33,027 nucleotides of DNA from an uncultured bacterium. Lineage in GTDB: Bacteria > NPL-UPA2 > JAADIA01. The translations under genes were made by a program, and so were the position numbers. The stretch lies in NCBI GenBank assembly GCA_964529935.1, contig CAZGXS010000001.1:1-33027 (forward strand), read 5' to 3'. Of the stretch, positions 1,746-33,016 are shown piece by piece (the first letter of the stretch is position 1; each line of letters starts with the position of its first letter). Under the pieces are notes generated by a model that was not told where the DNA came from, did no database searches, and saw nothing but the letters and a program-made list of their open reading frames with translations.

Positions 1746-1760
1746 GCAACTACTTAGGTT

Positions 1761-1950
1761 ATCCGGTTCACGGTTCACGGTTCACGGTTAAAAAACGAAC
1801 ATAATCCAACCAACTGTAAACTGTAAACTAACTGTGAACCTTTGAACTGTGAACCTTTAAGCCCTGTGAACGGTTACTAAATCATAGTGGCTTAGCTTCA
1901 CTGTTTTGTAACCTTGAACGGTGAACCCTTGAACCCTTGAACCCTTTACC
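1761..1950. repeat. Composite tandem-word array: (GGTTCAC)x3, (CTGTAAA)x2, (CTGTGAACCTTTGAA)x2, (GAACCCTT)x3
   Basis: Read directly: GGTTCAC x3 at about 1765-1785; its complement GTGAACC at about 1834, 1848 and 1921; GAACCCTT x3 at about 1923-1946. It fills the 220-nt GT4/GH130 spacer. Confidence 0.9.
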
Positions 1951-1966
1951 GAACGAAGTGAGGCAT

Positions 1967-2911
1967 ATGTTCAGAAGAAAAACGATAGCTAGAGATGTTG
2001 TACACCGCTGGGAGGGTAATCCTCTGATTAGACTTGAAGATTTAGGTTTTCAGTGTGCTGATCTGCGCTCGGCGGGGGTGGCATCCTACCAGGATAATAT
2101 CATTCTTCTCGTTACCATTGAACATCTGGCCGGGTTTCAATCCATACATCTGGCCAGGCGTGATGAGAAGGGCAGTTTTCATATTGAGAAAGAACCCTTC
2201 CTTGGCCCTCGCCGGGATCCTTTAGAGTTCGGACAGCACGAGTCACATGGGGTTATGGATGCCAGAGTAACTTTAATGGAAGGAGTTTATTATATTGTCT
2301 ATCTGGCTAGCGGTGAGCATGGTTTCCGGCTGGGACTGGCCACCACGAAAGATTTTGTCAAGGTCGAGCGCCAGGGTTTAATTTCAGAGCCGGATACGAA
2401 AGCCGGGGCACTTTTTCCTGAGAAGTTCAAGGGACGCTATGCCCGGTTAGGCCGTCCGCGGGAGGGGAATAGCATCTGGGTCAGTTATAGCCGTGACCTG
2501 GTCTACTGGGGCGATAGCGAACTTCTTTTATCGCCGAGAGCCGGCTTTTGGGATTCTTCCCGGGTGGGGGCCGGCCCCCCTCCGATGAGAATTCCTGAGG
2601 GGTGGCTGTTAATATATTATGGCGTGAAGAAGACCCAGGCTGGGCCTTTGTTCCGATTGGGGGCAGCTATCCTGGATGGAGCTGATCCTACCAGGATTAT
2701 CAGTCGGTCGAATATCCCCATCCTCTCACCGCGCGAAGATTATGAGCGGGTTGGCGACTTGAGCAATATCGTATTTTCTACGGGCGTATTGGTCAAGAAT
2801 AACCAGGAGATGGATATCATTTACAGCGGAGCCGACAGTTGCCTTTGTCTGGGAAGCACAACCGTTGAGGAAATTGTGGAAACCTGCTCTCGGAGCAAGG
2901 AGGAATTTTAA
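1967..2911 (+). CDS. GH130-family glycosidase / beta-mannoside phosphorylase-like protein
   Basis: Motifs RWEGNP, GRYARLGRP, GWLLIYYG, PREDYE..G...NIVFSTG, IIYSGADS. ATG 1967 places RWEGNP 13 aa from the N-terminus, the same spacing as the paralog at 2912. The ORF-track start at 1937 lies inside the tandem repeat. Confidence 0.85.
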   Translation: MFRRKTIARDVVHRWEGNPLIRLEDLGFQCADLRSAGVASYQDNIILLVTIEHLAGFQSIHLARRDEKGSFHIEKEPFLGPRRDPLEFGQHESHGVMDARVTLMEGVYYIVYLASGEHGFRLGLATTKDFVKVERQGLISEPDTKAGALFPEKFKGRYARLGRPREGNSIWVSYSRDLVYWGDSELLLSPRAGFWDSSRVGAGPPPMRIPEGWLLIYYGVKKTQAGPLFRLGAAILDGADPTRIISRSNIPILSPREDYERVGDLSNIVFSTGVLVKNNQEMDIIYSGADSCLCLGSTTVEEIVETCSRSKEEF

Positions 2912-3844
2912 GTGGTGTCACGACAGCCTCTAGATAAAGATTTACTGCAGCGCTGGGAGGGTAATCCGGCCATTACTATGGAGGATATTCCTTTCCGGGC
3001 CAACACGGTGTTTAATGGCACGCCCATAGTTACCGAGGAAGGGGTGTTGCTTCTGTTGAGGGTTGAGGGACAGCAGGGATACTCCATGTTTGCCCTGGCC
3101 CGAAGTCGGGATGGATTGCGCTTCCAGGTTGATGAGAAGCCGGTGATGATGCCGGAAAGAAGCGGACCTTTTGCCAAGTATGAATCTAGAGGTATAGAAG
3201 ATCCCCGGGCCACATTCATAGAAGATACTTGTTATGTAGTCTATACGGCTGTAGGCAAACGTGGCCCCCGGATTGCTCTTGCTAAAACCAAGGATTATGT
3301 TAACTACGAACGCCTGGGGCTTATTTCTGAGCCTGGGAATAAAGATGGGGTCCTTTTTCCCAGGAAGATTAAGGGCCGCTATGCCCGGCTTGACCGACCT
3401 CTAGGCGGGGGCCGCGGTAGTATCTGGATATCGTATTCACCCGACCTGCTCAATTGGGGCGATTCGGAGGTGATTATGACACCCCGGAGCGGTTATTGGG
3501 ATGATTTTCGTATTGGGGCTTCTGTACCCCCCATAGAGACTGATGAGGGCTGGTTGGAGATTTATCATGGGATTAAATTGACCTCATCCGGGGCGATTTA
3601 CCGTGTCGGAACGGTTCTGCTTGATCTTGATGACCCGGCGAGGGTTATCAAGCGCAGTTCCTCACCTATCTTATCGCCGCGTGAAAATTATGAGCGCATT
3701 GGTGATGTTCCCAATGTGTGTTTTGCCTGCGGCGCGGTAATTGATCCTGATGGCAAGATAAAAATTTACTATGGAGCGGCGGATACATCCATTTGTGTGG
3801 CCCTGGGCACGCTGGAGCAGATTCTCAGGGAGAGTTTTAATTAA
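2912..3844 (+). CDS. GH130-family glycosidase / beta-mannoside phosphorylase-like protein (tandem paralog)
   Basis: Motifs RWEGNP, GRYARLDRP, GWLEIYHG, PRENYE..GDVPNVCFACG, IYYGAADT. The GTG start sits immediately after the upstream TAA, with AAGGAGG 7 nt upstream. Confidence 0.85.
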   Translation: MVSRQPLDKDLLQRWEGNPAITMEDIPFRANTVFNGTPIVTEEGVLLLLRVEGQQGYSMFALARSRDGLRFQVDEKPVMMPERSGPFAKYESRGIEDPRATFIEDTCYVVYTAVGKRGPRIALAKTKDYVNYERLGLISEPGNKDGVLFPRKIKGRYARLDRPLGGGRGSIWISYSPDLLNWGDSEVIMTPRSGYWDDFRIGASVPPIETDEGWLEIYHGIKLTSSGAIYRVGTVLLDLDDPARVIKRSSSPILSPRENYERIGDVPNVCFACGAVIDPDGKIKIYYGAADTSICVALGTLEQILRESFN

Positions 3845-3850
3845 CTGCTC

Positions 3851-3932
3851 AGGTTATCAGGTTCACAGTTCAAAGGTTCACGGTTAGTTGGGTCATGTTC
3901 ATTTTTTAACCGTGAACCGTGAACCGCGGAAC
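3851..3932. repeat. GGTTCAC/GTGAACC hairpin element (same word family as 1761-1950)
   Basis: GGTTCACGGTTA (about 3875-3886) is perfectly complementary to TAACCGTGAACC (about 3907-3918), with a 20-nt loop. It shares the 5' boundary AGGTTATC.GGTTCAC with the array at about 1755. Confidence 0.9.
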
Positions 3933-3963
3933 TTTAAACCTAAGTAATTAACCAAGGGGTTAC

Positions 3964-5340
3964 ATGCTAACGGGAATAAAAAAAGTTCATTTCATTGGTA
4001 TTGGAGGAGCGGGAATGAATGGCCTGGCCGCAATTCTCCGGGAACAAGGCTTGGAGGTGAGCGGTTCGGATATAAAAGAAAGTCATATTACGGAACGGCT
4101 TAAGTCCCGGGGAGCGGTAATTTATTCTAGCCATAAAGAGGAGCATTTGCAAGAGGCTGACCTCGTAGTTTTTTCTTCAGCTATCCCTTCGGGCAATGCG
4201 GAGCTTAAAGCCGCCCGGAGGCGAGGGATTTCTCTTCTTTCCCGGGGAGAAATGTTAGCGAAGCTAATGAAGGAAAAAAAAGGAATTGCTGTTGCCGGCA
4301 CTCATGGAAAGACAACTACTACTTCTATGGCGGCCTTGATTCTGGAAGAAGCGGGACTATCTCCGACGATAATTATTGGCGGGGAGGTAAACGACAAAGG
4401 AGGAAATGCTCAGTTGGGTCAGGGAGAATATCTGTTAGCTGAGGCTGATGAGAGTGATGGTTCCTTCTTAAAGCTATCTCCCAAGCTGGCGGTAATCACC
4501 AATATCGAGGCAGATCATCTGGACTATTACTCCAGCCTGGAAATGGTAATCGCCGCTTTCGAGAAGTTTGTGGAGAATATTTTCCCGGGAGGTATCCTCA
4601 TTTTTTGTTCCGATTGTCCGAATGCAGGGAAGATGCGGAAGCGAATCCGGTCCGGAATAGAGATCTTAACTTATGGTTTGGGGAAAGAAGCTGACCTCAG
4701 AGTTGAGCATCTCTGCCAGGAGGAGTTAGGATCAAGATACGAGGTTTTCTACTATGGATCCCGGTTGGGGGAAGTGAGACTTCCGTTACCGGGGAAGCAT
4801 AATGTTCGCAATTCGCTGGCTGCCCTGGGGATAGGGCTGAAAGTGGGAGCGAATTTCTCCGGGATGTGCTCCTGTCTGGAAAAATTTCCCGGAGTAAAAA
4901 GAAGATTTGAAATAAAAGGAAATTTTAAAAATATTATGATAGTAGATGACTATGCTCATCATCCCACTGAGATCAGGGCTATTCTTGAGGCCGCTAGAGC
5001 TAAGAAAAGAGAAAGAATTATTACCGTATTTCAACCTCATCGTTATAGCAGAACCAAATTTATAAAAGAGGAGTTTGCTTCTGCTTTTCAGGGAACCGAT
5101 GTTTTGGTGCTCACTGAAATCTATGCAGCGGGAGAGGAACCTCTGCCGGGAGTAAGCGGTCGGGCTCTTTTTGAAGCTGTTTGGAAAAAGAGGCAAAAAG
5201 CAGTTGAGTTTATCCCTGATAAGTCTCAGATCGCTGATTATTTAATGTCTATTCTCCGGCCTGGGGATCTGGTCATTACTATGGGAGCAGGAGATATCGG
5301 AACGGTGGCTGAGGAGATAGTTGAGAAGTTGAAAAAATAG
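3964..5340 (+). CDS. murC: UDP-N-acetylmuramate--L-alanine ligase
   Basis: 458 aa. N-terminal fold GIGGAGMNGLA, Mur-ligase P-loop GTHGKTTTTSM, DHLDYY. It heads the murC-murB-ddl-ftsQAZ order. Confidence 0.95.
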   Translation: MLTGIKKVHFIGIGGAGMNGLAAILREQGLEVSGSDIKESHITERLKSRGAVIYSSHKEEHLQEADLVVFSSAIPSGNAELKAARRRGISLLSRGEMLAKLMKEKKGIAVAGTHGKTTTTSMAALILEEAGLSPTIIIGGEVNDKGGNAQLGQGEYLLAEADESDGSFLKLSPKLAVITNIEADHLDYYSSLEMVIAAFEKFVENIFPGGILIFCSDCPNAGKMRKRIRSGIEILTYGLGKEADLRVEHLCQEELGSRYEVFYYGSRLGEVRLPLPGKHNVRNSLAALGIGLKVGANFSGMCSCLEKFPGVKRRFEIKGNFKNIMIVDDYAHHPTEIRAILEAARAKKRERIITVFQPHRYSRTKFIKEEFASAFQGTDVLVLTEIYAAGEEPLPGVSGRALFEAVWKKRQKAVEFIPDKSQIADYLMSILRPGDLVITMGAGDIGTVAEEIVEKLKK

Positions 5341-5380
5341 TGAATAGTAGTTAGTGAATAGTAGTTAGTAACCATTCACT
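5339..5380. repeat. (AGTGAATAGTAGTT)x2 followed by inverted ATTCACT
   Basis: A 14-nt unit is repeated twice, starting inside the murC stop codon. AGTGAAT and ATTCACT can form a 7-bp stem. Confidence 0.85.
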
Positions 5381-5395
5381 GGTAATTGAATATCG

Positions 5396-6295: not shown

Positions 6296-6299
6296 CGAT

Positions 6300-6344
6300 T
6301 TAGTGAATAGTGAATGGTGAATAGTGAATGGTGAATAGTGAATG
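6300..6344. repeat. (GTGAATR)x6, equivalent to (GTGAATAGTGAATG)x3
   Basis: Six perfect heptamers alternating A/G at about 6303-6344. The last unit contains the ddl GTG start codon. Confidence 0.95.
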
Positions 6345-7354
6345 AAGTAATCCGGGATGCGAAAATAGCCGTCTTGATGGGAGGACCATCCAGTGAGAGG
6401 GATATTTCCCTGAAGTCGGGGAAGGCGGTGGAGGAAGCTCTCCAAAAAGTCGGTTTAAAGGTTGTGCCTATTGTTGTGGATGAAGATATGGAGGAAAGAT
6501 TAAAGGAAGAGAGGGTAGGGGTAGCTTTTATTGCCCTTCACGGAAGGTTCGGTGAAGATGGCACTGTCCAGGAGATACTGGAACGATTAAGTATTGCCTA
6601 TACAGGCTCAGGAGTAGAAGCCAGTAGAATAGCTTTTGATAAGGCGGTTTCCAAGAAAATTTTCCTCAAGGAAGATATAGCTACTCCCGCTTTTTATGTT
6701 TTGGAAAAGGGGGATAAGAAAGAGAAGATGGTCTCTCAGTTTCCTTTCCATCCAGTTATAAGAAATCCGCTCGTTGTTAAACCGGCCCGGGAGGGTTCTA
6801 CCCTAGGTGTATCCATTATTAGAGGGGAAGAAGAATATTTAACTGCCCTTGACAGAGCTTTTCAGTATGATAGGAAAATATTGGTAGAAGAGTATCTAGA
6901 TGGTCGGGAAGTCACCGTGGGCATCTTAAATGGTTCTCCTCTGCCGGTTATCGAGATCCTTCCCCAGAGAGAATTTTTCGATTTCCAGGCCAAGTATACG
7001 GAGGGTTTAACTAATTTTAAGGTTCCTGCTCCTCTACCCCCGGATATTTACGAGGAGACTCAGGCTCTGGCTCTTCAGGCTCACCGGGCGCTGGATTGTC
7101 AAGGTATGTCCCGGGTAGATATAAAAGTGAATAGCTCCGGAAAACCCTATGTCCTGGAGGTGAATACTATCCCCGGAATGACTTCCTTAAGCCTCTTGCC
7201 GAGGGCAGCCCGGGCAGCGGGGATAAGTTTCCCGCAGTTATGTTGTAAATTAATTGAAATTGCCTTAAGAGATAAGGCACAGAGGCACAAAGGCACAGAG
7301 GCACAAAGGAAGAAAAGGCACAAAGGGAAAAAGGCACAAAGGGGAAAACAATAG
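6338..7354 (+). CDS. ddl: D-alanine--D-alanine ligase with repeat-encoded basic C-terminal tail
   Basis: ATP-grasp enzyme: KIAVLMGGPSSERDISLKSG, HGRFGEDGTVQ, EVNTIPGMT. GTG 6338 is the only start upstream of the conserved N-terminus (in-frame TGA at 6332-6334). The last ~26 aa are translated from AGGCACAR repeats. Confidence 0.93.
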   Translation: MNEVIRDAKIAVLMGGPSSERDISLKSGKAVEEALQKVGLKVVPIVVDEDMEERLKEERVGVAFIALHGRFGEDGTVQEILERLSIAYTGSGVEASRIAFDKAVSKKIFLKEDIATPAFYVLEKGDKKEKMVSQFPFHPVIRNPLVVKPAREGSTLGVSIIRGEEEYLTALDRAFQYDRKILVEEYLDGREVTVGILNGSPLPVIEILPQREFFDFQAKYTEGLTNFKVPAPLPPDIYEETQALALQAHRALDCQGMSRVDIKVNSSGKPYVLEVNTIPGMTSLSLLPRAARAAGISFPQLCCKLIEIALRDKAQRHKGTEAQRKKRHKGKKAQRGKQ

Positions 7355-7418
7355 CCAATACTTACAGTTTTTTAAGTTTTTTAACTCTGTGCCTCTGTGC
7401 CTAATTTGCATGTGCCTT
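7271..7418. repeat. AGGCACAR hairpin element, full copy 1
   Basis: (AGGCACAR)x4 plus two spaced AAGGCACAAAGG units at about 7275-7342. Loop core AATACTTACAGTTTTTTAAGTTTTTTAACT. Inverted arm CTCTGTGCCTCTGTGCCT (about 7385-7402) plus TGTGCCTT. Confidence 0.9.
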
Positions 7419-7443
7419 CTCGCACCGGAGGTGCGTTAGTTTA

Positions 7444-8259: not shown

Positions 8260-8270
8260 ACATAGATGGA

Positions 8271-8378
8271 CACAGAGTTTCTCAGGATTCAAGGATTCAA
8301 GGATTTGAGGGTTTTTTTAAAGATTTTCCCTTGACCCCTTGAATCCTGGACCCCTTGAACCCTTATTCTTTCTCTGTG
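8271..8378. repeat. AGGATTCA / CCTTGAA hairpin element
   Basis: CAGGATTCAAGG (about 8283-8294) is perfectly complementary to CCTTGAATCCTG (about 8337-8348). There is a tandem 8-mer on the left arm, a T7 run in the loop, and an outer CACAGAG/CTCTGTG pair. Confidence 0.9.
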
Positions 8379-8404
8379 GTTACCGGGTTTCTGAGGATAA
8401 AGGA

Positions 8405-9643
8405 ATGAAGAAGCAGGAATTTGTCGTCGGGCTGGATATTGGCACCACCAAGATCTGTGCTATGGTGGGCCGCCAGGGTGAAGCTGGTGAGGTGGAGATA
8501 ATCGGGGTGGGAGTCAGCCCTTCCAGGGGTTTAAGAAAGGGAGTGGTAGTTAATTTAGAGAGCACTATTGATTCTATAGGGAGGGCTATTGAGAAAGCGG
8601 AGAGTTCCGCTGGTCTTGAGGTATCCCAGGTCTTCACCGGAATAGCTGGAGGGCATATCAAGGGTTTGAATAGTCGGGGGGTGATAGTCATTTCCCGGGG
8701 TTTTCGAGAGATTACCAGAAAAGATATGGATCGGGTCATTGATGCTGCCAAGGCGTTAGCTATCCCTCTCGATCGGGAGGTTCTTCATGTCATTACCCAG
8801 GAATTTATTGTTGATGACCAGGAAGGAGTGAAGGATCCTTTGGGAATGTCAGCCACTCGTTTAGAGGCTGAGGTGCATATTGTTACCGGTGCGGTTACCT
8901 CAGCTCAGAATATAGCTAAGTCTATAAACCAAGCTGGCTTTGAGGTGGAGGATATGGTCCTGGGTCCCCTGGCTTCCGGAGAAGCCGTTTTGACGGCTGA
9001 GGAAAAGCGCTCCGGGGTGATTCTCATCGATATGGGCGGAGGAACCACCGACATCGTTATCTTCGTTGAGGGCAGTATTCGTCATAGCGAAGTTCTGGCT
9101 TTAGGAGGGGACCATGTGACCAATGACATCGCTATTGGGCTACGCACCTCTTCCCTTCATGCCGAAGAGGTGAAGAAGGCTTATGGCTGTGCTCTTCCTT
9201 CCTTAATCAGACGGGAAGAGTCTATTGACTATCCGGGAGTGGAGGGGAGACGGAAAGGCCGAATCTCTCGCACTCAGCTGGCGGAAATCATTGAACCGAG
9301 GATTGAAGAGCTCCTTACTCTCGTTAACGCGGAAGTGGAAAGGACTGGTCTCTCGCACCTGATCTCTGCCGGGGTGGTTTTAACCGGAGGAGCTTCTCTC
9401 CTTACCGGTCTCCCGCAGATGGCGGAACGGATATTTGAGTTACCGGTAAGAATGGGCCGGCCTAATGGAAGAACTAAGGGTTTGGAAAGGATAGGAGATA
9501 GTCCCATCTATGCTACCGGAGTGGGATTAGTTCATTACGGCTTAGATTGTCGGCAGGGAAAAAGAATGGCTCATTTTAAGGGAAGGAACTTGTTCAGTCA
9601 GGTAGCCCTGAGGATGAAGGAATGGTTAGGGGAATTTTTTTAG
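8405..9643 (+). CDS. ftsA: Cell division protein FtsA
   Basis: Actin-fold motifs VVGLDIGTTKICAMV, ILIDMGGGTTDIVIF, GVVLTGGASLL. ATG 8405 has a GAGGA SD. The ORF-track start at 8339 lies inside the repeat element. Confidence 0.93.
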   Translation: MKKQEFVVGLDIGTTKICAMVGRQGEAGEVEIIGVGVSPSRGLRKGVVVNLESTIDSIGRAIEKAESSAGLEVSQVFTGIAGGHIKGLNSRGVIVISRGFREITRKDMDRVIDAAKALAIPLDREVLHVITQEFIVDDQEGVKDPLGMSATRLEAEVHIVTGAVTSAQNIAKSINQAGFEVEDMVLGPLASGEAVLTAEEKRSGVILIDMGGGTTDIVIFVEGSIRHSEVLALGGDHVTNDIAIGLRTSSLHAEEVKKAYGCALPSLIRREESIDYPGVEGRRKGRISRTQLAEIIEPRIEELLTLVNAEVERTGLSHLISAGVVLTGGASLLTGLPQMAERIFELPVRMGRPNGRTKGLERIGDSPIYATGVGLVHYGLDCRQGKRMAHFKGRNLFSQVALRMKEWLGEFF

Positions 9644-9677
9644 CCAACAAGTAATTACTCAGGTATGGCCACAAAGA

Positions 9678-9733
9678 CACGCCTCACGCCTCACGCTACA
9701 GACTACAGGCTTTCAAGCGTGAAGCGTGAAGCC
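9678..9733. repeat. CACGCCT / AGCGTGA hairpin element, copy 1
   Basis: (CACGCCT)x2 plus CACGCTA, loop ACAGACTACAGGCTTTCA, then (AGCGTGA)x2 AGCC. The arms pair over about 17 bp with two C-A mismatches. Confidence 0.9.
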
Positions 9734-9770
9734 TATCTGGTGCCCTGGTGCTCATTAAGGAGGAGAGAAA

Positions 9771-10952: not shown

Positions 10953-12513
10953 GAAGCAATTATTAGCGGGGGAGATAGGGACTTGTTACAAGAAAGAAGC
11001 GGAGGTTTCGGTGCTCCTTGTCTATCCTAATAGCTACTTTGTGGGGATGTCCAGTTTAGGATTTCAGACGATCTATTATCAGTTGAACCAGCGTTCGGAT
11101 ACCTACTGCCAGCGGCTGTTCCTTGACTCTTCTCCTCCCCTATCGCTGGAGAAAGGATGGCCGGTAAGCAATTTTGATATCATCGCTTTCTCTGTATCCT
11201 TTGAGCTGGATTATCTGAATATCTTGAAAATATTAGATGTAGTTGCCATTCCTTTAAAAGGAGGAGAAAGGAGCGATGGCCATCCTTTGATTATAGCCGG
11301 AGGGATAGCCGTTTCGGCCAATCCGGAGCCTCTCGTGGAATTCATTGATCTTTTTGTCATCGGGGAAGGGGAAGAGGTTATTCATGAGGTTATTGATGCA
11401 TATAAGACAGTCGCTAATCAACGTCCCCTCCTCAGCAGAAAAGAAATTCTTAAAAAGCTAGCTGAAATTGAGGGTATTTATATCCCCGGATTTTATCAAG
11501 TCTCTTATAATGAAGATGGAACAGTAAAAGCCGTTGAGGCCAGAGACGTTCCCGGAAAGATTAAGAGAAGATGGATAAGGGATATTGACAACTATCCAAC
11601 TGTTTCCCGCATCTTGACCAAAAATACGGAGTTTGGGGATATGTATTTGCTGGAGATCAGTCGGGGATGTCCGGAAAATTGTTATTTTTGTTTGGCCAGC
11701 CATATTTATCGCCCCTGGCGAGTGAGAAGTTTAGAAAAGATATTAGAACAAGCGGAAGAAGGACGGAAACACCGAGAGAGGATAGGACTTATTTCGAATC
11801 TTGCCTCCCGCCATCCCCGGGTGGAAGAGATTTGTTCGCAGGTGTTAAAAATGAAAGGGAGGATCTCCCTATCCTCTCTCCGACCAGGAACTTTGAGCAA
11901 GACTTTGATTCGGTCCCTGGAGGAGAGCGGACAACGGACGATTACCTTGGCTCCGGAAACGGGGTCGGAGACCTTAAGGAAAACTCTTAATAAAGACATC
12001 AGCAACGAAGATATTCTGAGGTCAGTGGAATTGATAGCTAACTTCGCCGTTCCCAACCTTAAGCTCTATTTCATGATTGGTTTCCCCGAGGAAAAAGACG
12101 GAGACATGGCAGCTATTATCGATTTAGTGACTAAGGTAAAAAAGATATTGATGAGGGCAAAAAAGTCAGGTAGAATTACTGTTAGCGTCAATCCTTTCGT
12201 TCCCAAAGCTTCTACTCCTTTCCAGAGGGTAAGGATGGAGGAGGGAAAGACGCTTTCCCGGCGCCTCAAAATCCTGAAAAAGGGACTCCGGGGTTTAGGG
12301 AATGTCAAATTGATTCACGAAAGTATTAAGTGGAGCCTTTGGCAGGGGCTCCTTTCCCGGGGCGACCGACGGTTAGGAAATGTTCTCCTCTCAACCTATA
12401 GATGGGAAGGAGATTGGAAGAAGGCTTTAAGGGAAGAAGGGCTGGATAAGTTTTTCTATCTGCATCGGGAAAGAGGAAAAGAGGAAATATTGCCCTGGGA
12501 TCACCTAATTTAA
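10942..12513 (+). CDS. B12-binding-domain radical SAM protein of unknown function (resembles the TIGR03960-type uncharacterised family)
   Basis: 523 aa. CX3CX2C motif in SRGCPENCYFC. The N-terminal LLVYPNSYFVGMSSLGFQTIYYQLN is typical of this family. ATG 10942 overlaps the last 11 nt of ftsZ. Confidence 0.8.
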   Translation: MDIRKQLLAGEIGTCYKKEAEVSVLLVYPNSYFVGMSSLGFQTIYYQLNQRSDTYCQRLFLDSSPPLSLEKGWPVSNFDIIAFSVSFELDYLNILKILDVVAIPLKGGERSDGHPLIIAGGIAVSANPEPLVEFIDLFVIGEGEEVIHEVIDAYKTVANQRPLLSRKEILKKLAEIEGIYIPGFYQVSYNEDGTVKAVEARDVPGKIKRRWIRDIDNYPTVSRILTKNTEFGDMYLLEISRGCPENCYFCLASHIYRPWRVRSLEKILEQAEEGRKHRERIGLISNLASRHPRVEEICSQVLKMKGRISLSSLRPGTLSKTLIRSLEESGQRTITLAPETGSETLRKTLNKDISNEDILRSVELIANFAVPNLKLYFMIGFPEEKDGDMAAIIDLVTKVKKILMRAKKSGRITVSVNPFVPKASTPFQRVRMEEGKTLSRRLKILKKGLRGLGNVKLIHESIKWSLWQGLLSRGDRRLGNVLLSTYRWEGDWKKALREEGLDKFFYLHRERGKEEILPWDHLI

Positions 12514-12514
12514 G

Positions 12515-12632
12515 GATAAGGCACAAAGTGACAGAGGCACAAAGGCACAAAGGAAAAGATAAAAGCTAATACTTGCAGTTTTTTTAGTTTTTTTTAACTT
12601 TGTGCCTATGTGCCTTAGTGCCTCTGTGCCTG
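12515..12632. repeat. AGGCACAR hairpin element, full copy 2
   Basis: Starts GATAAGGCACA as in copy 1. The loop core AATACTTGCAGTTTTTTTAGTTTTTTTTAACT is about 90% identical to copy 1. Inverted arm CTTTGTGCCTATGTGCCTTAGTGCCTCTGTGCCT. Confidence 0.9.
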
Positions 12633-12690
12633 TCCGTACCAGGGCTTGCCAGAACCTGCAAATCAGGGATAGAGAAGGAGGGATATTTGT

Positions 12691-13506: not shown

Positions 13507-13565
13507 AAGGGCCCAATCTTTCTACTAATAAAGAGCACAGGAATTTTTGTGTTGGAAAGAAGGAA

Positions 13566-13594
13566 TTGACTTGAGAAAGAAGAAATGATAGAAT
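13566..13594 (+). promoter_or_regulatory. Candidate sigma70-type promoter for lepB: TTGACT-17-TAGAAT
   Basis: Hexamers and 17-nt spacing were read directly, about 50 nt upstream of the lepB ATG. This spacer has no word repeats. Confidence 0.4.
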
Positions 13595-13645
13595 TGCAGA
13601 GTAATTTTTTAAGCGCATTCTATCTAAAGTGAAAGGTGCCCATAG

Positions 13646-14344: not shown

Positions 14345-14347
14345 CTC

Positions 14348-14376
14348 TTGACAAGAAGTCAGATTAGTAGTATCTT
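14348..14376 (+). promoter_or_regulatory. Candidate sigma70-type promoter for grpE-dnaK-dnaJ: TTGACA-17-TATCTT
   Basis: Perfect -35 hexamer, 17-nt spacer and a weak -10, located 30 nt upstream of the grpE ATG. Confidence 0.3.
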
Positions 14377-14405
14377 TTTGAGGGTCACCGAGGAAAGGGC
14401 AACCT

Positions 14406-15035
14406 ATGTTGGGAAGGAAGGAAAAAATACAATCAAAGCTGGAAGGAGAAGCGGATAAGAAAAAAGTAAAGCCGAAATCGAAAAGAGGAGGAAGGAAGCT
14501 ATCCCTTTCCCAGGAAAAGTGGCAAGAGATAAGTGAGAAAGCGAAATTAGCTGAGGAGCGATTTGACCGTCTCTTGAGACTTCAGGCGGAATTTGAGAAC
14601 TATCGTAAGAGGGTTAACAGGGAGAGAGGCGAGTTCATTCAGTATGCTTTAGAAGATTTCATCTGTGACCTCTTGCCGGTAGTTGATAATTTCGAACGGG
14701 CTATTGCCTCAGCCCACCAGCACGACAATTCTCCGGCTCTGCTTCAGGGAGTAGAGATGATTTATAAGCAGGTGCAGGATGTTTTAGCCAAGAGGGGGCT
14801 GGAGAAGATAGAAGCTCTGGGTAAGAAGTTTGATCCCCGGGAACACGAAGCCGCGATGCAGGTAGAAAGTAAAGAGCATGCGGATAATACGGTTATTGAA
14901 GAGAGCTTAGCTGGGTATAAACTCAAAGATAAGGTGATTCGACCAGCCATGGTTAAAGTTTCTACAAAGAAGGCACAAAGGCACAAAGTAGCAAAGGCAC
15001 AGGGTGAAGAAGTTAAGGACAAGAAAGCCCAATAA
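14406..15035 (+). CDS. grpE: Nucleotide exchange factor GrpE with repeat-encoded C-terminal tail
   Basis: RLQAEFENYRKR, FDPREHEA, and the conserved end RPAMVKVS. This is followed by about 24 extra residues (KKAQRHKVAKAQ...) encoded by AGGCACAA units. Confidence 0.93.
   Translation: MLGRKEKIQSKLEGEADKKKVKPKSKRGGRKLSLSQEKWQEISEKAKLAEERFDRLLRLQAEFENYRKRVNRERGEFIQYALEDFICDLLPVVDNFERAIASAHQHDNSPALLQGVEMIYKQVQDVLAKRGLEKIEALGKKFDPREHEAAMQVESKEHADNTVIEESLAGYKLKDKVIRPAMVKVSTKKAQRHKVAKAQGEEVKDKKAQ
14971..15002. repeat. (AGGCACAA)-type tandem octamers x4 inside the grpE 3' end (left arm only)
   Basis: AGGCACAA AGGCACAA AGTAGCAA AGGCACAG, read directly. No inverted TGTGCCT arm follows. Confidence 0.85.
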
Positions 15036-15040
15036 ATTGG

Positions 15041-15067
15041 GCAACTACAAAGACGAACTGTAGTTGC
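15041..15067 (+). terminator. Stem-loop GCAACTACA-N9-TGTAGTTGC between grpE and dnaK (possible attenuator or processing site)
   Basis: Perfect 9-bp stem followed by TTGATTT. The adjacent palindrome is CTTGAT-TT-ATCAAG. There is no strong U-run, so this is not a canonical terminator. Confidence 0.3.
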
Positions 15068-15159
15068 TTGATTTATCAAGCTAACTAACAGGTGCTTATA
15101 CTTTCCTATACCTTTAAAAAACTTACGACTTACAACTTTAACAAGGAGGTAAATAAAAG

Positions 15160-17102: not shown

Positions 17103-17215
17103 GTAACTACTTCAGGAGTCAGAAGTCAGGAGTCAGAATCCAGAATAGAAGAAGCACAAGCTTTCCTGTCTGTGTTAATTTCTTTCATTCTGACTCCTGA
17201 CTTCTAAGTAGTTAC
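17103..17215. repeat. Long hairpin element built from (CAGRAGT) heptamers
   Basis: The left arm GTAACTACTT-CAGGAGT-CAGAAGTCAGGAGTCAGAAT pairs with the right arm ATTCTGACTCCTGACTTCTAAGTAGTTAC. That gives about 29 bp with one heptamer bulged out and a loop of about 47 nt. Confidence 0.9.
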
Positions 17216-18420: not shown

Positions 18421-18458
18421 TTGTAATTTAAAATTTACAATCTTCAATTTACAATTCA
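18421..18458. repeat. AT-rich tandem or palindromic AATTTACAA units
   Basis: TTGTAATTTAAAATTTACAA is an imperfect palindrome, followed by AATTTACAA repeated with a 14-nt period. Confidence 0.7.
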
Positions 18459-18562: not shown

Positions 18563-18703
18563 TCACCTCAAAGAGGACTATCCCAGATTTACGGAGCAAT
18601 AACTCGTAGAATTTGGAATTGACAAGCTTTCTAAGTCATCAACGCGAGATTCAAGGCTATTAGTTTCATTCTCCGTATCCATAATATTCCCCAAGCAATA
18701 TTT

Positions 18704-22838: not shown

Positions 22839-22858
22839 CGTTGTCCTCCTTCTGTTCG

Positions 22859-22888: not shown

Positions 22889-22929
22889 ATGCCAAAGCTT
22901 TTTAGTTAGAAAAAACTGGCACTTTTTTG

Positions 22930-22958: not shown

Positions 22959-22965
22959 TATGCAT

Positions 22966-25574: not shown

Positions 25575-25603
25575 TCATTACGACCGTAAAAAAAGCTTCT
25601 TCA

Positions 25604-26386: not shown

Positions 26387-26997
26387 CCCGGGTGAAGATA
26401 TGCGGGATAACTAATCTGAAGGACGCTCAGGCGGCCGTGGAGGGGGGTGCGGATGCCCTGGGGTTTGTCTTCGCTGAAAGTCCTCGTCAGATTAATCCGG
26501 AGGTCGCAGTTGGAATTATTCGTTCCCTGCCTCCTTTTCTTACCTGCGTGGGTCTTTTTGTGGATGAATTGCCGCAGGTGGTCAAGGAGATTATAAAGGA
26601 ATGCCGATTGGATGCGCTCCAGTTTCATGGGGGAGAACCTCCTGGCTATTGCCGGCAGTTTATGATCAAAACAATCAAGGCCTTTCGCCTCAGGAACGAG
26701 GATAGCTTAGAGATTATTTCCCATTATCAGGTGGATGCCTATCTTCTGGATACCTATAGGGAGGGAATTCCCGGGGGAACAGGGCAGTCCTTCGACTGGG
26801 ATTTGGCCCTCCGGGCTAAAGAATTTTCCCGCCCGATTATCTTAGCGGGGGGGTTAAGGCCGGATAATGTAGCTGAGGCTATCGGGAGAGTTAGACCTTA
26901 TGGGGTTGATGTGAGCACCGGCGTGGAAGCGAAACCGGGGAAGAAAGACCATAAAAAGATGAAAGAGTTTATAGAAATAGCGAGGAGTGTCAGATAG
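26383..26997 (+). CDS. trpF: Phosphoribosylanthranilate isomerase
   Basis: 204 aa. VKICGIT, LQFHG, LLD....GGTG..FDW. The GTG start overlaps the trpC stop. Confidence 0.92.
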   Translation: MTRVKICGITNLKDAQAAVEGGADALGFVFAESPRQINPEVAVGIIRSLPPFLTCVGLFVDELPQVVKEIIKECRLDALQFHGGEPPGYCRQFMIKTIKAFRLRNEDSLEIISHYQVDAYLLDTYREGIPGGTGQSFDWDLALRAKEFSRPIILAGGLRPDNVAEAIGRVRPYGVDVSTGVEAKPGKKDHKKMKEFIEIARSVR

Positions 26998-27060
26998 GCT
27001 TCACGCTATACGCTGCAGGTTGCAGACTGCAGGCTTTTAAGCGTGAGGCGTGAGGCGTGA
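26997..27060. repeat. CACGCCT / AGCGTGA hairpin element, copy 2
   Basis: GGCTTCACGCTATACGCT, loop GCAGGTTGCAGACTGCAGGCTTTTA, then AGCGTGAGGCGTGAGGCGTGA. The loop core CAGACTRCAGGCTTTYAAGCGTGA is shared with the copy at 9678, in the same orientation. Confidence 0.9.
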
Positions 27061-27075
27061 AAGGAGTGTGGGGAT

Positions 27076-29069: not shown

Positions 29070-29086
29070 GGGAATCATATTCTTTA

Positions 29087-30526
29087 ATGAAAACAATCTC
29101 TAAACAATCTAATCCTCTGGTGGCTATCGTTGGTCGTCCCAATGTGGGCAAATCAACCCTCTTCAATCGCCTTATCGGGGAGCGGAAATCGATAGTGGAA
29201 GCGGAACCGGGAGTCACCCGGGACAGGGTCTATGCTGAGGGGGAATGGGTGGGGAGGCAATTTTCCCTGGTGGATACCGGCGGCTTGATTCCCGATACTT
29301 CCGGGGAAATCATGAGCTTAGTCAGAAAACAGGTAAAGGTAGCTATCGAGGAAGCGGATCTTCTTATCTTCTTAGTGAATGTCCAAGAGAGGCTAACTGC
29401 TATTGATGAAGATATAGCAAAATGGTTTCGCCGGATAGATAAGCCTGTTATCCTGGTTGCTAATAAGGCTGATAATCCTCGCTTAGAAGAAGACGCGCTC
29501 TCTTTTTATCGATTGGGCTTATCTCATCCTATTCCTATTTCAGCTATGCATGGGCTTAATATTAACGAGCTCCTCGATAAGATGCTCGAGTCTTTACCTT
29601 TAAAGGGGCAAAAAGGGGAGCAGAAAGAAGGAATTAAAGTTGCCGTTGTCGGACGGCCCAATGTAGGGAAATCATCCTTCATCAATACTCTTCTTCGGGA
29701 GGAAAGGCTCATCGTTAGCGATAAGCCGGGAACAACCCGGGATGCCATAGACACTGTCTTTTATATAGGCGAGGAGAAGTTCATTTTCGTGGATACGGCA
29801 GGAATGCGGCCGAAGAGCCGGGTGAAGAAAAAGGTGGAAAGTTATAGTATAATCCGGTCCCGAAGAAGCATAGAACGCGCTGATATCGTTCTCCTTCTCA
29901 CCGATGCTCAGGAAGGGGTAACTTCCCAGGATAGCAAAATAGCCAGCTACATTTGTGAGGAGGGAAGAGGATGCATTATTGTGGTCAATAAGTGGGATCT
30001 AATAGTGGAAAGTTTAAAGTTGAAAGGGAAAAATAAAAGAAAGGGCCAAGCACCTCGGGTTGAAAGTTTAAGGTTGAAAGTTGAAAGTCAAAAAAATAAT
30101 CAACTACCCTGGGTGGAGATGAAAAAAGTGAGGGAAGAATATAGCCAAGCATTACGGGATAAGCTGAGGTTTCTGAACTTTGCTCCTTCTACCTTCATTT
30201 CAGCTTTAACTGGGGAGGGCGTATTTAAAATTATCGATTTGATAAGGATGGTAGCTCATCAGCAGACAATTCGTCTATCTTCCGGTATTTTGGGAAAAGT
30301 GTTTGAAGAAGCTAAGGACCATTATAAACCGCCTGGCGGTCAAGCTAAACCAGTTACTCTCCATCGACTCAGTCAAGTGGGGATAAAGCCGCCTACCTTT
30401 GTCCTTTTTGCCAATCATCCTCAGTTTATTGCCGACCCTTATTTGCGTTATCTCAGCAATAGATTACGTCAGGCCTTTGGATTTGAAGGGACTCCCCTCA
30501 AAATTATTCCCCGGAAGGGAAGATGA
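29087..30526 (+). CDS. der: Ribosome-biogenesis GTPase Der (EngA) with in-frame repeat insertion
   Basis: Two G domains (GRPNVGKST..DTGG..NKAD..ISAM and GRPNVGKSS..DTAG..NKWD..ISAL) plus a C-terminal KH-like domain. Confidence 0.95.
   Translation: MKTISKQSNPLVAIVGRPNVGKSTLFNRLIGERKSIVEAEPGVTRDRVYAEGEWVGRQFSLVDTGGLIPDTSGEIMSLVRKQVKVAIEEADLLIFLVNVQERLTAIDEDIAKWFRRIDKPVILVANKADNPRLEEDALSFYRLGLSHPIPISAMHGLNINELLDKMLESLPLKGQKGEQKEGIKVAVVGRPNVGKSSFINTLLREERLIVSDKPGTTRDAIDTVFYIGEEKFIFVDTAGMRPKSRVKKKVESYSIIRSRRSIERADIVLLLTDAQEGVTSQDSKIASYICEEGRGCIIVVNKWDLIVESLKLKGKNKRKGQAPRVESLRLKVESQKNNQLPWVEMKKVREEYSQALRDKLRFLNFAPSTFISALTGEGVFKIIDLIRMVAHQQTIRLSSGILGKVFEEAKDHYKPPGGQAKPVTLHRLSQVGIKPPTFVLFANHPQFIADPYLRYLSNRLRQAFGFEGTPLKIIPRKGR
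30003..30116 (+). repeat. GTTGAAA-word direct repeats inside der (in-frame)
   Basis: GTGGAAAGTTTAAAGTTGAAAGG (about 30006-30028) and GTTGAAAGTTTAAGGTTGAAAGTTGAAAGTC (about 30059-30089) flank an A-rich core. They translate as VESLKLKG...VESLRLKVES. Confidence 0.85.
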
Positions 30527-30730
30527 AAGAGGAGCAAGACATTTTCTCCCTCACAGGTGGTTGCTCGCTGCTACGCTTCGGTCGAAAAGGGCAGCAATTA
30601 AACTCCCCGCCACACTTCTTGGCGGGTCAGACAAAATTTCTGCTTTAACCCTTTTCTTCCTCAGCTACGCGGACGCTGCGCTACCAATGTTCGCTTGAAA
30701 ATACCTTGCTCTATGGTAGGAATGATAGAG

Positions 30731-31387: not shown

Positions 31388-32366
31388 AACAATAGCCATT
31401 CTGGGAGCAGGAAGCTGGGGATGTGTTCTGGGGGTTCATCTCTTTAAGAAGGGCTCTGAAGTCCGGCTCTGGGACCTTGTCCCTCAAGTGGAACTAATCA
31501 AGGAGAAGCGGGAATGTCTTAAGATCCCGGGGTTGGTTATTCCCCCGGGGATAAAGGTTACTTCCCAAATGGAGGAGGCCCTGGAGAGAGCTCAAATCGT
31601 CGTCGTGGCCATTCCCTCTCAGATAGTGCGAGAGACAATCCAAAAAATGAAGGAGTTGCCTCTTCCTTCTATTATAGTTAGCGCCAGCAAGGGAATTGAG
31701 AATAAGACTTTAAGGACTATGTCGGAAGTTATCCTTGCCGTCCTGGGGGAAAGGCCGGTCGTTGTTCTCTCCGGTCCCAGCCATGCTGAGGAAGTCTGTC
31801 GCGGCATTCCCACAACTATAGTAGCCTCCTCTTCTGATGAAAAAGAGATGAAAGAGGTTCAGCGGGTCTTTATGACAGAGACTTTGCGAGTTTATACCAA
31901 TCCGGATATCCTGGGAGTAGAATTGGGCGGAGCCTTAAAGAATATAATCGCTATTGCGACGGGAATATCCGATGGTCTGGGCTTTGGGGATAATACCAAG
32001 GCGGCTCTCCTTACTCGGGGATTAGCGGAAATCTCTCGTCTGGGAATAGTCCGTGGGGCCAAACCTCTTACCTTTGCCGGGCTCTCGGGGATGGGAGATT
32101 TAATCACTACCTGTATCAGTCGCTACAGTCGGAATCGGAATTTAGGAGAGGCCATTGGCCAAGGTAAAAGCCTGGAAGAGGCTTTAGAAGATATAGGAAT
32201 GGTGGTAGAGGGGATTCCGACGACTAAATCAGCTCATGATTTAGCTAAAAAATATAAAGTGGAAATGCCCATAACCGAAGAAATATATCAGGTTCTTTTT
32301 GAGGGGAAAAATCCCTATCGGGCCGTGACTGATCTCATGCTCCGGGACGCCAAGTCGGAAATCTAA
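31380..32366 (+). CDS. gpsA: NAD(P)H-dependent glycerol-3-phosphate dehydrogenase
   Basis: ILGAGSWG Rossmann start, GALKNIIAIA, and conserved der-plsY-gpsA synteny. Confidence 0.95.
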   Translation: MSKTIAILGAGSWGCVLGVHLFKKGSEVRLWDLVPQVELIKEKRECLKIPGLVIPPGIKVTSQMEEALERAQIVVVAIPSQIVRETIQKMKELPLPSIIVSASKGIENKTLRTMSEVILAVLGERPVVVLSGPSHAEEVCRGIPTTIVASSSDEKEMKEVQRVFMTETLRVYTNPDILGVELGGALKNIIAIATGISDGLGFGDNTKAALLTRGLAEISRLGIVRGAKPLTFAGLSGMGDLITTCISRYSRNRNLGEAIGQGKSLEEALEDIGMVVEGIPTTKSAHDLAKKYKVEMPITEEIYQVLFEGKNPYRAVTDLMLRDAKSEI

Positions 32367-32377
32367 TATTTTCGCTT

Positions 32378-32457
32378 CCCACCTTCATCCCCTCCCCCGG
32401 GGAGAGGGAAGCCCCGTTAGATAAAAAGCTTATCTATCAACGGGATAAAGGTGAGGG
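32378..32457. repeat. Compound imperfect palindrome downstream of gpsA
   Basis: The outer pair CCCACCTTCATC / GATAAAGGTGAGGG encloses a GC-rich imperfect hairpin (TCCCCTCCCCCGGGGAGAGGGA). It also encloses a 12-bp bulged hairpin CCCGTTAGATAA-AAAGC-TTATCTATCAACGGG. Confidence 0.6.
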
Positions 32458-32555
32458 GGGGTAATTTCAGTACCAGGCCAGGAAATCCAAAGAGGGTTTA
32501 TTCTTTTTAAAGAGAAGTTTTTTTATTCTCTATTTTGCTTTGAGACACATTTTTA

Positions 32556-32584
32556 TTGTCATCTTTTGCGGAAGATGATATAGT
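32556..32584 (+). promoter_or_regulatory. Candidate promoter TTGTCA-17-TATAGT, with TCATCTT-N6-AAGATGA palindrome in the spacer
   Basis: Hexamers, 17-nt spacing and a perfect 7-bp inverted repeat (32559-32578) were read directly. The -10 ends 9 nt before the MerR-family ATG. Confidence 0.45.
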
Positions 32585-32593
32585 TTAAAAAGA

Positions 32594-32935
32594 ATGAATT
32601 CAGAAATACCGAATAAATTATACTTTTCCATCGGGGAGGCTAGTCGTATTGCCGGAGTCGAATCCCATGTGCTGCGTTATTGGGAGTCGGAATTTAGTTG
32701 TCTTCGGCCACGCAAGGACAAGTCCGGTCGTCGGAACTATCAGAAGAAAGACCTGGAAACTATTCTCCACATTAAGGATTTGCTCTACTGCCAGCGATAT
32801 AGTATCGCTGGGGCGAAAAGGAAGATGAAGGAAAGAGAAGAAGGAGAGCGGGGAGCAAAGAAAAAAAATTTTGTATCAACTTTGAAGGGGGTAAAGAAAG
32901 ATTTACAGTCAGTTTTAAAGGCTCTCTCTAAGTGA
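32594..32935 (+). CDS. MerR-family transcriptional regulator (small, HTH only)
   Basis: 113 aa. N-terminal HTH YFSIGEASRIAGVESHVLRYWESEF, followed by a basic, coiled-coil-like C-terminus. Confidence 0.85.
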   Translation: MNSEIPNKLYFSIGEASRIAGVESHVLRYWESEFSCLRPRKDKSGRRNYQKKDLETILHIKDLLYCQRYSIAGAKRKMKEREEGERGAKKKNFVSTLKGVKKDLQSVLKALSK

Positions 32936-32938
32936 TGG

Positions 32939-33016
32939 GTTATTAGCTATTAGTTATAACCTTATACCCTTACGGGCACAAGCGGGCACAAGCGAGTTAC
33001 GAGTTACTGTTTTTTT
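32939..33016. repeat. Serial tandem duplications: TTATWRSY units, (CGGGCACAAG)x2, (CGAGTTA)x2, T7
   Basis: Read directly. GGCACAAG resembles the AGGCACAR family. Any inverted arm would lie beyond the window end. Confidence 0.8.

Follow-up and report, generated by a model that had tools for sequence, protein, structure and literature searches.

Arrays of tandem 7-8 nt words, arranged at eight loci as the complementary arms of a hairpin, occupy much of the DNA between same-direction genes on a contig of an uncultured bacterium (33,027 nt, one whole NCBI contig, referred to below as the window). We put a probability of roughly 55% on the reading that these are non-autonomous palindromic repeats with slippage-prone arms, which have been dispersed and which, we infer, most likely serve as intercistronic punctuation in RNA. 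The elements would be non-coding units of 65-150 nt with stems built from the tandem words. The arms would be expanded, contracted and homogenised by slipped-strand mispairing, with a register of 7-8 nt or, for two units, 14-16 nt, and whole elements would be dispersed and replaced via an insertion route, surviving where the harm is small: in the gaps between a stop codon and the next ribosome-binding site, in dispensable tails of open reading frames (ORFs) and in one tolerant protein loop.

The window and the sequences compared with it

The window starts with genes for GH130, GT4, GH130, GH130, MurC, MurB, Ddl, FtsQ, FtsA and FtsZ, followed by a radical SAM protein (rSAM), a YfiH-like protein, signal peptidase, GrpE, DnaK, DnaJ and tRNA-Glu, all on the plus strand. 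After tRNA-Glu come NMO (minus strand), a Zn-ribbon protein and LepA (plus), an FMN reductase (minus) and DUF2229 (plus); the end holds TrpE, TrpC, TrpF, TrpB, TrpA, Der, PlsY, GpsA and MerR (plus). The nearest named relatives of LepA (90% identity), FtsQ (80%) and Der are labelled "candidate division NPL-UPA2 bacterium", one relative in this protein comparison carries a Nitrospirae label, and the best LepA matches under about 67% identity are from Firmicutes. Judged from these nearest relatives, the host is a member of candidate division NPL-UPA2 and therefore not a cyanobacterium; an initial annotation of the window had already argued against a cyanobacterium from the presence of FtsA, and rightly so.

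Syntenic relatives were collected by exact-protein look-up (loci L082-L084, L085/L088, L087/L089, L090 and L091), and these, about 120 kb, together with the 33-kb contig made up the roughly 150 kb of lineage DNA examined. The out-group comprised 80 division and cell wall (dcw) loci from other phyla (1.24 Mb), found via FtsA among the listed matches of at most 60% identity. Arrays were called with Tandem Repeats Finder (TRF), whole elements were folded as RNA and compared with 200 shuffles each, and the null for array counts was 100 dinucleotide shuffles of the non-coding zones.

Tandem-word arrays are real and concentrated outside genes

The tandem-word pattern is real. TRF returned arrays of period 7 or 8 at all 14 loci where the initial annotation had seen tandem words of 7-8 nt, and the merged arrays of the window numbered 18 of period 7, 14 of period 8 and 10 of all remaining periods. 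A repeat census split by coding and intergenic DNA, which that annotation had suggested and which was run here within the window, counted 20 arrays in the 2,673 nt that lie outside ORFs and 12 in the 30,354 nt of ORF DNA, which makes the arrays about 19 times denser outside; five of the 12 ORF arrays lay in the final 10-20% of their ORF. The non-coding zones (2,878 nt) contained 23 arrays against 0.24 ± 0.45 (maximum 2) after shuffling, so that they belong with the long simple repeats, defined as tandem 5-11 nt units of more than chance length and frequency (Mrazek 2007, as relayed by PMC4679880). The window had 9.7 arrays per 10 kb, the out-group dcw loci 1.67. No fewer than ten unrelated words are present within the 33 kb, and TRF also reported higher-order periods of 14 and 16 nt in the arrays.

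An assembly or scaffolding artefact, a possibility the initial annotation had allowed for, has next to no probability and is refuted for the arrays themselves. The contig does terminate within an array, and relatives L082 and L090 have N-gaps within theirs, from which it follows that arrays break assemblies; but the FtsA-FtsZ element is found without any difference in an independent Logan assembly, and orthologous or paralogous copies are found in ENA, JGI and NCBI assemblies from different samples.

Seven of the loci form significant hairpins and one a weak hairpin

Complementary arms stand 20-70 nt apart at eight window loci. Seven of the elements folded better than every one of their 200 shuffles (z of -7.7 for the 1762 element, -5.9 for 3842, -5.4 for 7272, -3.9 for 8271, -8.5 for 12514, -9.1 for 17103 and -4.5 for 26990), and the 9652 element folded weakly (z -1.8, with 9 of 200 shuffles as good). 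The stems have 25-45 pairs and are bulged, and the elements reach -33 to -57 kcal/mol. No significant hairpin was obtained by RNA folding against shuffles at 5336, 6296, 14965, 18415, 29995 and 32940, which consist of arrays only. The initial description of the words as usually forming inverted arms, for which folding against shuffled controls had been named as the check, thus holds for eight of the 14 loci, 9652 with the reservation just given, and fails for the other six. The elements and arrays of the window, all on the plus strand, are as follows.

1747-1858, plus strand: hairpin with the 5' end motif CAACTACTTAGG at 1747-1758 (TRF, fold, end motif); left arm (CGGTTCA)x3.7 at 1764-1789, right arm of AACTGTA/TGTGAACC words at 1812-1858 (TRF).
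1912-1946, plus strand: (TGAACCCT)x3 array just before the GH130b start (TRF); the word family is also found at 8324-8364.
3842-3950, plus strand: hairpin with ends TAACTGCTCAGG and CCTAAGTAATTA and arms of AGGTTCA and AACCGTG words (TRF, fold); the TAA of its left end is the GH130c stop codon.
5336-5385, plus strand: (TAGTGAATAGTAGT)x2.3 array in the MurC-MurB spacer, short stem only (TRF; fold z -1.85).
6301-6344, plus strand: (TAGTGAA/TGGTGAA)x6 array in the MurB-Ddl spacer, lacking an inverted partner (TRF; fold z -0.3).
7271-7421, plus strand: family A copy 1, Ddl-FtsQ; left arm (RAGGCACA)x8.5, read through to add 28 aa to the end of Ddl; conserved core ..GCCAATACTTACAGTTTTTTAAGTTTTTTAAC..; CTCTGTGC words in the right arm.
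8271-8379, plus strand: hairpin in the FtsQ-FtsA spacer, arms (AGGATTCA)x2.8 and (CCCTTGAA)x4.6 (TRF, fold).
9652-9752, plus strand: FtsA-FtsZ element; 5' end TAATTACTCAGGTATGGCCACAAAGACAC, arms (CACGCCT)x2.7 and (AAGCGTG)x2.6 (TRF).
12514-12636, plus strand: family A copy 2, a complete hairpin in the rSAM-YfiH spacer (TRF, fold).
14967-15001, plus strand: family A, the left arm alone, (AAGGCACA)x4, which on translation forms the C-terminal tail of GrpE (TRF).
15120-15138, plus strand: weak (AACTTAC)x2.7 array upstream of dnaK (TRF).
17103-17215, plus strand: hairpin in the DnaK-DnaJ spacer with ends GTAACTACTT and AAGTAGTTAC (TRF, fold); arms of (TCAGRAG)n and of ATTCTGA/CTCCTGA/CTTCTAA words, the class 3 words (MTYCTGA) of Geobacter metallireducens.
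18425-18456, plus strand: (AATTTAC)x4.6 array between dnaJ and tRNA-Glu (TRF); related arrays stand at the equal position in L087 and L082.
26998-27062, plus strand: hairpin CACGCT .. CTGCAGGCTTTTAAGCGTGAGG in the TrpF-TrpB spacer, kin of 9652-9752 (TRF, fold).
30004-30092, plus strand: GTTGAAA-type heptamer arrays within the Der ORF (TRF).
32954-33007, plus strand: arrays TTATAACC, CGGGCACAAG and CGAGTTA at the contig end (TRF), probably an element cut by the assembly break.

A search of Rfam with the window and eight related loci, in which gathering and E-value thresholds were both tried, matched a tRNA and nothing else; sub-threshold miRNA-precursor hits at 12507-12639 merely reflect the long hairpin. 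As a separate observation, the loops have a polarity that runs across word families: on the sense strand 4-8 T followed by AA stand directly 5' of the right arm, in the elements at 3842-3950, 7271-7421, 8271-8379, 12514-12636 and 26990-27062, and also at 16925-16940 of L037, a locus from another phylum.

Word families, shared cores and shared ends

The words had been described as locus-specific, and this did not hold, since five families recur within the window. The AAGGCACA word is found at 7271, 12515 and 14967, the AGGTTATC-GGTTCAC family at 1756 and 3851, the TGAACCCT family at 1914 and 8324, the TAGTGAA family at 5338 and 6301, and CACGCCT/AAGCGTG at 9678 and 27000, the elements at 9652-9752 and 26990-27062 also sharing ..CTRCAGGCTTTYAAGCGTGA.. 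Family A has a near-invariant centre of 60 nt, GGAAAGATAAAAGCCAATACTTGCAGTTTTTTTAGWTTTTTTAACTYTGTGCC, between RAGGCACA and TGTGCCTY arms. Scanning metagenome contigs for this centre gave two further copies in new gene contexts (L092 and L093, marine sediment). Alignment of five copies, from four loci and at least three genomes, had an invariant centre and arms of 2 to 8.5 copies, and in all eight of the family A arrays seen the purine-rich arm was on the sense strand.

The end motif GTAACTACTYAGG/CCTRAGTAGTTAC has nine matches in the window against 3.8 expected, and six of the nine are at element edges. It occurs twice as an inverted pair (3842/3939 and 17104/17203), so that two window elements are bounded by it at both ends, while two more have it at the 5' end only; it is absent from the other families, bounds elements in L082 and L090 too, and is scarce in the out-group loci. 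The 5' end of the 9652 element, at 9652-9680, recurs in L090 at a different locus, between GT4 and GH130b.

A dispersal and replacement of whole elements would leave what was seen here and among the relatives below: families recognisable by conservation of the core (family A) or of the ends (GTAACTACTYAGG), sites filled in one genome and empty in another, and elements nested in AT-rich loops. The initial annotation had offered a selfish family of hairpin elements as one reading, and the dispersed families with their shared cores and ends, the filled versus empty sites and the nesting speak for it; no transposase was found in the ~150 kb of lineage DNA.

We examined whether the elements could be of the repetitive extragenic palindromic (REP)/REPIN type, mobilised by a RAYT, an IS200/IS605-like tyrosine transposase, encoded elsewhere in the genome. 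They are palindromic, extragenic and situated downstream of ORFs between unidirectional genes as REPs are (PMC3733652), REP doublets form hairpins (PMC3116915), and GTAG is present within the shared end AAGTAGTTAC (at 17206-17215, and in L090 elements). However, this GTAG is paired in the stem instead of standing as an unpaired 5' tag and is lacking in most families, the elements are 65-150 nt with tandem-word stems and not units of 20-40 bp, and the search for a RAYT or IS200-IS605 TnpA-like gene that the initial annotation had proposed found none within the lineage DNA. We regard mobilisation by a RAYT as improbable.

Placement between genes

Arrays were found in 13 of 17 co-directional spacers versus none of three divergent or convergent ones. 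Of the 2,062 nt of co-directional spacer DNA, 1,066 nt (52%) are elements, and in every one of the ten fullest spacers their share is 69-100%. They start 0-10 nt past the upstream stop codon and end 14-55 nt ahead of the next start, with the ribosome-binding site left clear. The two co-directional spacers whose promoter hexamers are best have no arrays. The initial annotation was right that good hexamers without any of the words are found in the promoter-like spacers (13507-13645 and 14345-14405) and in the divergent spacer that precedes 20138. The spacer lengths of 55, 42, 89, 145 and 127 nt given for the dcw genes were also correct (145 assumes the FtsA start at 8405), but the implication that such spacing is unusual was not borne out for the last of them: a 127-nt FtsA-FtsZ spacer is ordinary against a median of 69 nt (range 14-446) in 77 other genomes, and FtsA-FtsZ spacers of 60-130 nt are normal in comparable genomes.

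Lying between a stop codon and a ribosome-binding site within same-direction gene pairs, the elements are almost certainly transcribed within polycistronic mRNA. There the hairpin would block 3' exonucleases on behalf of the upstream cistron, and it would offer double-strand or AU-rich-loop entry sites to RNases. In REP/BIME, ERIC and Correia elements, hairpins act as exonuclease barriers and as substrates for double-strand-specific RNases.

Placement bears equally on a role at the level of DNA, in which iteron-like arrays would serve a nucleoid-associated or global regulator and the inverted pairs would be bound in a complex that is bent or looped. Protein sites classically have this layout of tandem direct repeats in inverted pairs, IHF/HU was proposed for the matching classes 1-3 of G. 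metallireducens (PMC2700814), and the absence of strand asymmetry in the folding would suit a double-stranded DNA role. Yet at least ten unrelated words per 33 kb would need many proteins or one sequence-blind protein, the promoter-bearing and divergent spacers, the usual sites of regulators, are those that the elements avoid, and the words differ between close relatives where the neighbouring genes do not. We give DNA binding little probability.

Most of the loci are intergenic as first annotated; the locus at 30003 is inside the Der ORF and those at 7274 and 14970 are in the ORF tails of Ddl and GrpE. The AAGGCACA arrays at 7274 and 14970 have no stop codon in any frame, and reading through them gives Lys/Arg/Gln-rich C-terminal tails on Ddl (28 aa; window 7271-7354) and GrpE (14967-15035); the AAGGCACA word likewise extends TrpB in L085 (18165-18229). 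Compared with B. subtilis Der, the window Der has an insertion of about 40 aa (residues 308-347, approximately nt 30008-30128) between the second G domain and the KH-like domain. This lineage-specific expansion of the essential GTPase, which in the window is made in part of heptamer DNA repeats, is variable, 15-40 aa, in all the lineage relatives, and the window has an additional duplication of VESLKLK type; three heptamers equal seven codons (VESLKLK), so the reading frame is kept.

Turnover among relatives

Between the window and L090 the genes are about 85% identical in DNA, and the spacers are unalignable apart from the end motif. The DnaK-DnaJ spacer carries different words in each genome: TCAGRAG in the window, GGTTCRAAG/AGGCTGA in L082, ACCCGTA in L085 and CCGCCTGTGC/TGAGGGTA in L087. 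The comparison of copy number in related genomes suggested with the initial annotation did find a difference, as L091, whose FtsQ is 80% identical, has in its orthologous Ddl-FtsQ element about two words past the stop codon versus the 8.5 read into Ddl in the window. Filled and empty sites were seen within the trp genes. At the TrpB-TrpA junction, where the window genes overlap by ATGA, L085 carries about 105 nt more, which include (AGGCACAA)x4 and a GC-rich palindrome. Between TrpF and TrpB the window has 78 nt, 65 of them the hairpin, as against 24 nt in L085. An outer hairpin of ACGCAGAT words, uninterrupted in L088, has further word hairpins nested in its AT-rich loops in L090 and L091. 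By these sequence comparisons, array change is fast between species and not between near-clones.

Slippage within the arms would let the words drift, would make copy number differ between orthologous copies, and would leave some arrays partnerless. The 14- and 16-nt periods are a signature of slippage, and so is the heptamer excess, which is reported for bacterial long simple repeats (Mrazek 2007, as relayed by PMC4679880). Slippage could also be all there is. A pure mutational by-product, in which slippage around pre-existing short inverted repeats, having neither function nor mobility, is tolerated in neutral DNA, would account for the rapid turnover of words and the unalignable spacers, for folding that lacks strand asymmetry and for the six loci with arrays and no partner arm. 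It would also fit the finding that viral contigs have octamer arrays of scrambled words about as often as arrays of the real word, and a heptamer excess general in bacteria (PMC4679880). It does not account for cores and ends outside the repeats that are identical between unrelated loci and between genomes, for the clean filled versus empty sites of 65-105 nt and the nesting, or for the keeping of one word in both arms across ten or more word types. We consider it possible but unlikely.

Several further spacer sequences were noted among the relatives. A GC-rich nested palindrome, CCCTCACC..CCTCTCCCC NNN GGGGAGAGG..GGTGAGGG, is found at 32385-32460 of the window and at 18215-18270 of L085. Spacers of about 200 nt between FtsZ and rSAM (L085 969-1181, L087 1167-1452) and between FtsA and FtsZ (L088 5862-6066, L091 3511-3719) are conserved at least as well as the flanking genes, contain CCTCGCTTGGC-type motifs and have no Rfam match; they could be a structured RNA or a further element family, and the window, in which the FtsZ and radical SAM genes overlap, has none of them. 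The dnaK-dnaJ spacers of L085 (7260-7330) and L087 (7950-8020) contain first a canonical terminator, GACCCGAGA..TCTCGGGTCTTTATTTT, and then a promoter, TTGACA..GATAAAAT; in the window both are replaced by the word hairpin alone. A hairpin GCCCAATAAATTGGGCAACTACAAAGACGAACTGTAGTTGC stands after grpE (15028-15080) and, in opposite orientation, in the DnaK-DnaJ spacer of L082 (6530-6590). A dispersed element of about 55 nt, GGGACTGTCCCAGATTTACGGAGCGATAGCTCGTAGAATYGGGACTGTCCCCGG, follows tRNA-Glu and in L085 is also in the rSAM-YfiH spacer (L085 2800-2870 and 8830-8900, L087 9490-9560); the window has a degenerate copy only, at 18575-18625.

Evidence weighing against dispersed RNA punctuation

A number of results weigh against the reading of the elements as dispersed palindromes that punctuate mRNA. 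Three assemblies of one strain agree at 99.9% identity and without a single indel in the arrays, which means that slippage over such a timescale is not fast. Six of the 14 loci have no partner arm, and the hairpin therefore cannot account for every array. Folding showed no signal specific to RNA: the sense strand did better than the antisense in just five of nine elements, and counts of G-U pairs were alike. Selection for something other than the loop could be the reason for the near-invariant core of family A. With regard to mobility, no target-site duplication was identifiable at element edges: no consistent target-site direct repeat was seen at the edges of 3842-3950, 17103-17215 and family A, though a TA or TTAA duplication is possible. 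No transposase, RAYT or Y1 domain was found in the ~150 kb of lineage DNA, the relatives' unannotated ORFs included.

Nor is there a U-tract 3' of the stems, which are thus not canonical terminators. Intrinsic terminators or attenuators that set read-through between operon genes would explain very stable hairpins directly past stop codons, and T-runs are common in the elements, but these stand in the loop, on the 5' side of the right arm, instead of following the stem. A terminator scan flagged no word hairpin and gave 21 terminator-like sites against 23.8 expected, and the lineage has canonical terminators elsewhere, as in the DnaK-DnaJ spacer of L085. The terminator explanation is very improbable.

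Consequences

The elements explain roughly half of the same-direction intergenic DNA on a contig of an uncultured candidate phylum. They have practical effects on sequence records: contig breaks and N-gaps occur at arrays, gene callers report ORFs extended through stop-free arrays (Ddl, GrpE and L085 TrpB), and false upstream start codons arise at FtsA and GH130b. If hairpins of this kind do set operon mRNA stoichiometry, they would amount to a widespread and rapidly evolvable control of expression in anaerobic sediment and subsurface bacteria.

Comparison with known systems

The initial annotation had likened the arrays to cyanobacterial STRR repeats and to REP/BIME hairpins, which describes the anatomy fairly. 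The STRR units are CCCCAGT (STRR1), TTGGTCA (STRR2) and CAACAGT (STRR3). Neither these nor the TAACTGA and HIP1 words are tandem in the window, where no STRR unit occurs even twice in tandem. The window arrays share with STRR and with the TAACTGA repeats of Beggiatoaceae (PMC4679880) the intergenic tandem heptanucleotides, the patchy distribution across phyla and the presumed slippage, and heptanucleotides are the commonest long simple repeat in most prokaryotic genomes, with slippage proposed as the cause, in what PMC4679880 relays of Mrazek 2007. They differ in that nearly half are octamers (14, versus 18 of period 7) and in that they form complementary arms of dispersed palindromes. Moreover, the host is not a (heterocystous) cyanobacterium, and the TAACTGA sets (PMC4679880) are direct repeats abutting start codons, whereas the window elements leave the ribosome-binding site free.

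With REP/BIME/REPIN, ERIC and Correia elements the window elements have in common that they are small, non-coding, dispersed palindromes found occasionally inside genes (PMC3733652), and REP/BIME, ERIC and Correia elements are co-transcribed and known or proposed to alter mRNA stability and processing. REPs lie downstream of ORFs, in unidirectional pairs and sometimes within genes (PMC3733652), a placement matched by the co-directional spacers downstream of ORFs that hold the window elements and by the divergent spacers that hold none. Unlike REP units of 20-40 bp, the elements are 65-150 nt with stems of 25-45 bp made of tandem words in variable copy number; they are without a demonstrated tag, target-site duplication or transposase, and their sequence turnover is much faster than that inside REP families.

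MITEs have terminal inverted repeats common to many copies, flanking target-site duplications and a parent insertion sequence with matching ends. In the window GTAACTACTYAGG/CCTRAGTAGTTAC stands at both ends of two elements and at the 5' end of two more, with other families lacking it, and direct repeats at element edges were not consistent.

Rickettsia palindromic elements, in work attributed to Ogata et al. in 2000, are reportedly repeat DNA translated in frame within conserved proteins. The in-frame translated repeats of the Der loop and of the Ddl, GrpE and L085 TrpB tails resemble this. There is no sequence relation, and the coding cases here are a minority and consist of arrays only, with no complete palindromes.

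Comparable arrays do occur in other phyla. The out-group dcw loci contained 35 arrays of period 7 or 8 with an inverted partner within 150 nt, or 2.8 per 100 kb versus 33 in the window, and 14 of 65 out-group FtsA-FtsZ spacers of at least 40 nt had such arrays, in metagenome-assembled genomes (MAGs) labelled Methylomirabilota, Syntrophaceae, Desulfobacteraceae and others. Some out-group elements are built from words of the window, and an element in L037, a deltaproteobacterial MAG, is 80% identical to window 8262-8385. Two out-group MAGs, of Desulfobacterales and Desulfobacteraceae (L034 and L051), have FtsA-FtsZ spacers of 446 and 259 nt in which very long direct heptamer arrays, for example (AGAGGGC)x24, follow ftsA. 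Canonical words common to several genomes were 25 of 134 when matched exactly, modestly above a rough expectation, and single-linkage clustering of words gave only meaningless chaining. A privileged vocabulary of words across phyla was tried and rejected: the AAGGCACA-type pattern occurred in 17 viral contigs and scrambled octamers in 16 and 3, so the viral-contig test is no evidence for a privileged word.

One could go further and see in NPL-UPA2, Geobacter and the deltaproteobacterial, Syntrophaceae and Methylomirabilota MAGs a single cross-phylum class of elements with a shared grammar (left arm, variable loop, T-run plus AA, right arm), spread horizontally without a known transposase or generated by hairpin-templated slippage, and kept as a sequence-independent RNA separator of cistrons. 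We consider this quite unlikely.

The closest counterpart of the elements is in G. metallireducens, where Aklujkar et al. 2009 (PMC2700814) listed paired opposite-strand intergenic sites (24 pairs in class 1, 21 locations in class 2 and 8 pairs in class 3), among them sites between proB and proA. Each site has three to five octa- or heptanucleotides in tandem; binding by IHF/HU was the authors' guess. The class 3 arms are ATTCTGA/CTCCTGA/CTTCTGA, with the pairs 75-115 nt apart (PMC2700814 supplement). The same layout, intergenic and of paired tandem hepta- or octamers, is found at eight window loci, and the element at 17103-17215 uses the class 3 words at a similar size: MTYCTGA is tandem at 17112-17138 and at 17187, and the arm sequences match Gmet_I301-I308. 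The consensus words of class 1 (GTTGCTYN) and class 2 (TCTCCGTS) are not tandem in the window, and the other seven hairpins use other words. The class 4 palindrome (CCCTCACC..CCCTCTCCC NNN GGGAGAGGG), of a class said to resemble multicopy sequences in many genomes (PMC2700814), is the family found at window 32385-32460 and in the L085 insertion. The differences are that the window is from another phylum, has a far higher density (13 of 17 co-directional spacers) and many more word types, and has the family A core and GTAACTACT ends, which PMC2700814 does not describe.

The genome paper on NPL-UPA2 (PMC6305446) does not mention repeats. Going by that paper, the elements are undescribed for this lineage, but their architecture, and for one element the words too, was catalogued in G. 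metallireducens in 2009, in families that have stayed uncharacterised since. As that organism is cultured and genetically tractable, function is testable there. The window elements are not a new category; such elements, which are related to STRR- and REP-type repeats, had already been glimpsed in Geobacter, and the window has a variant with many families at high density.

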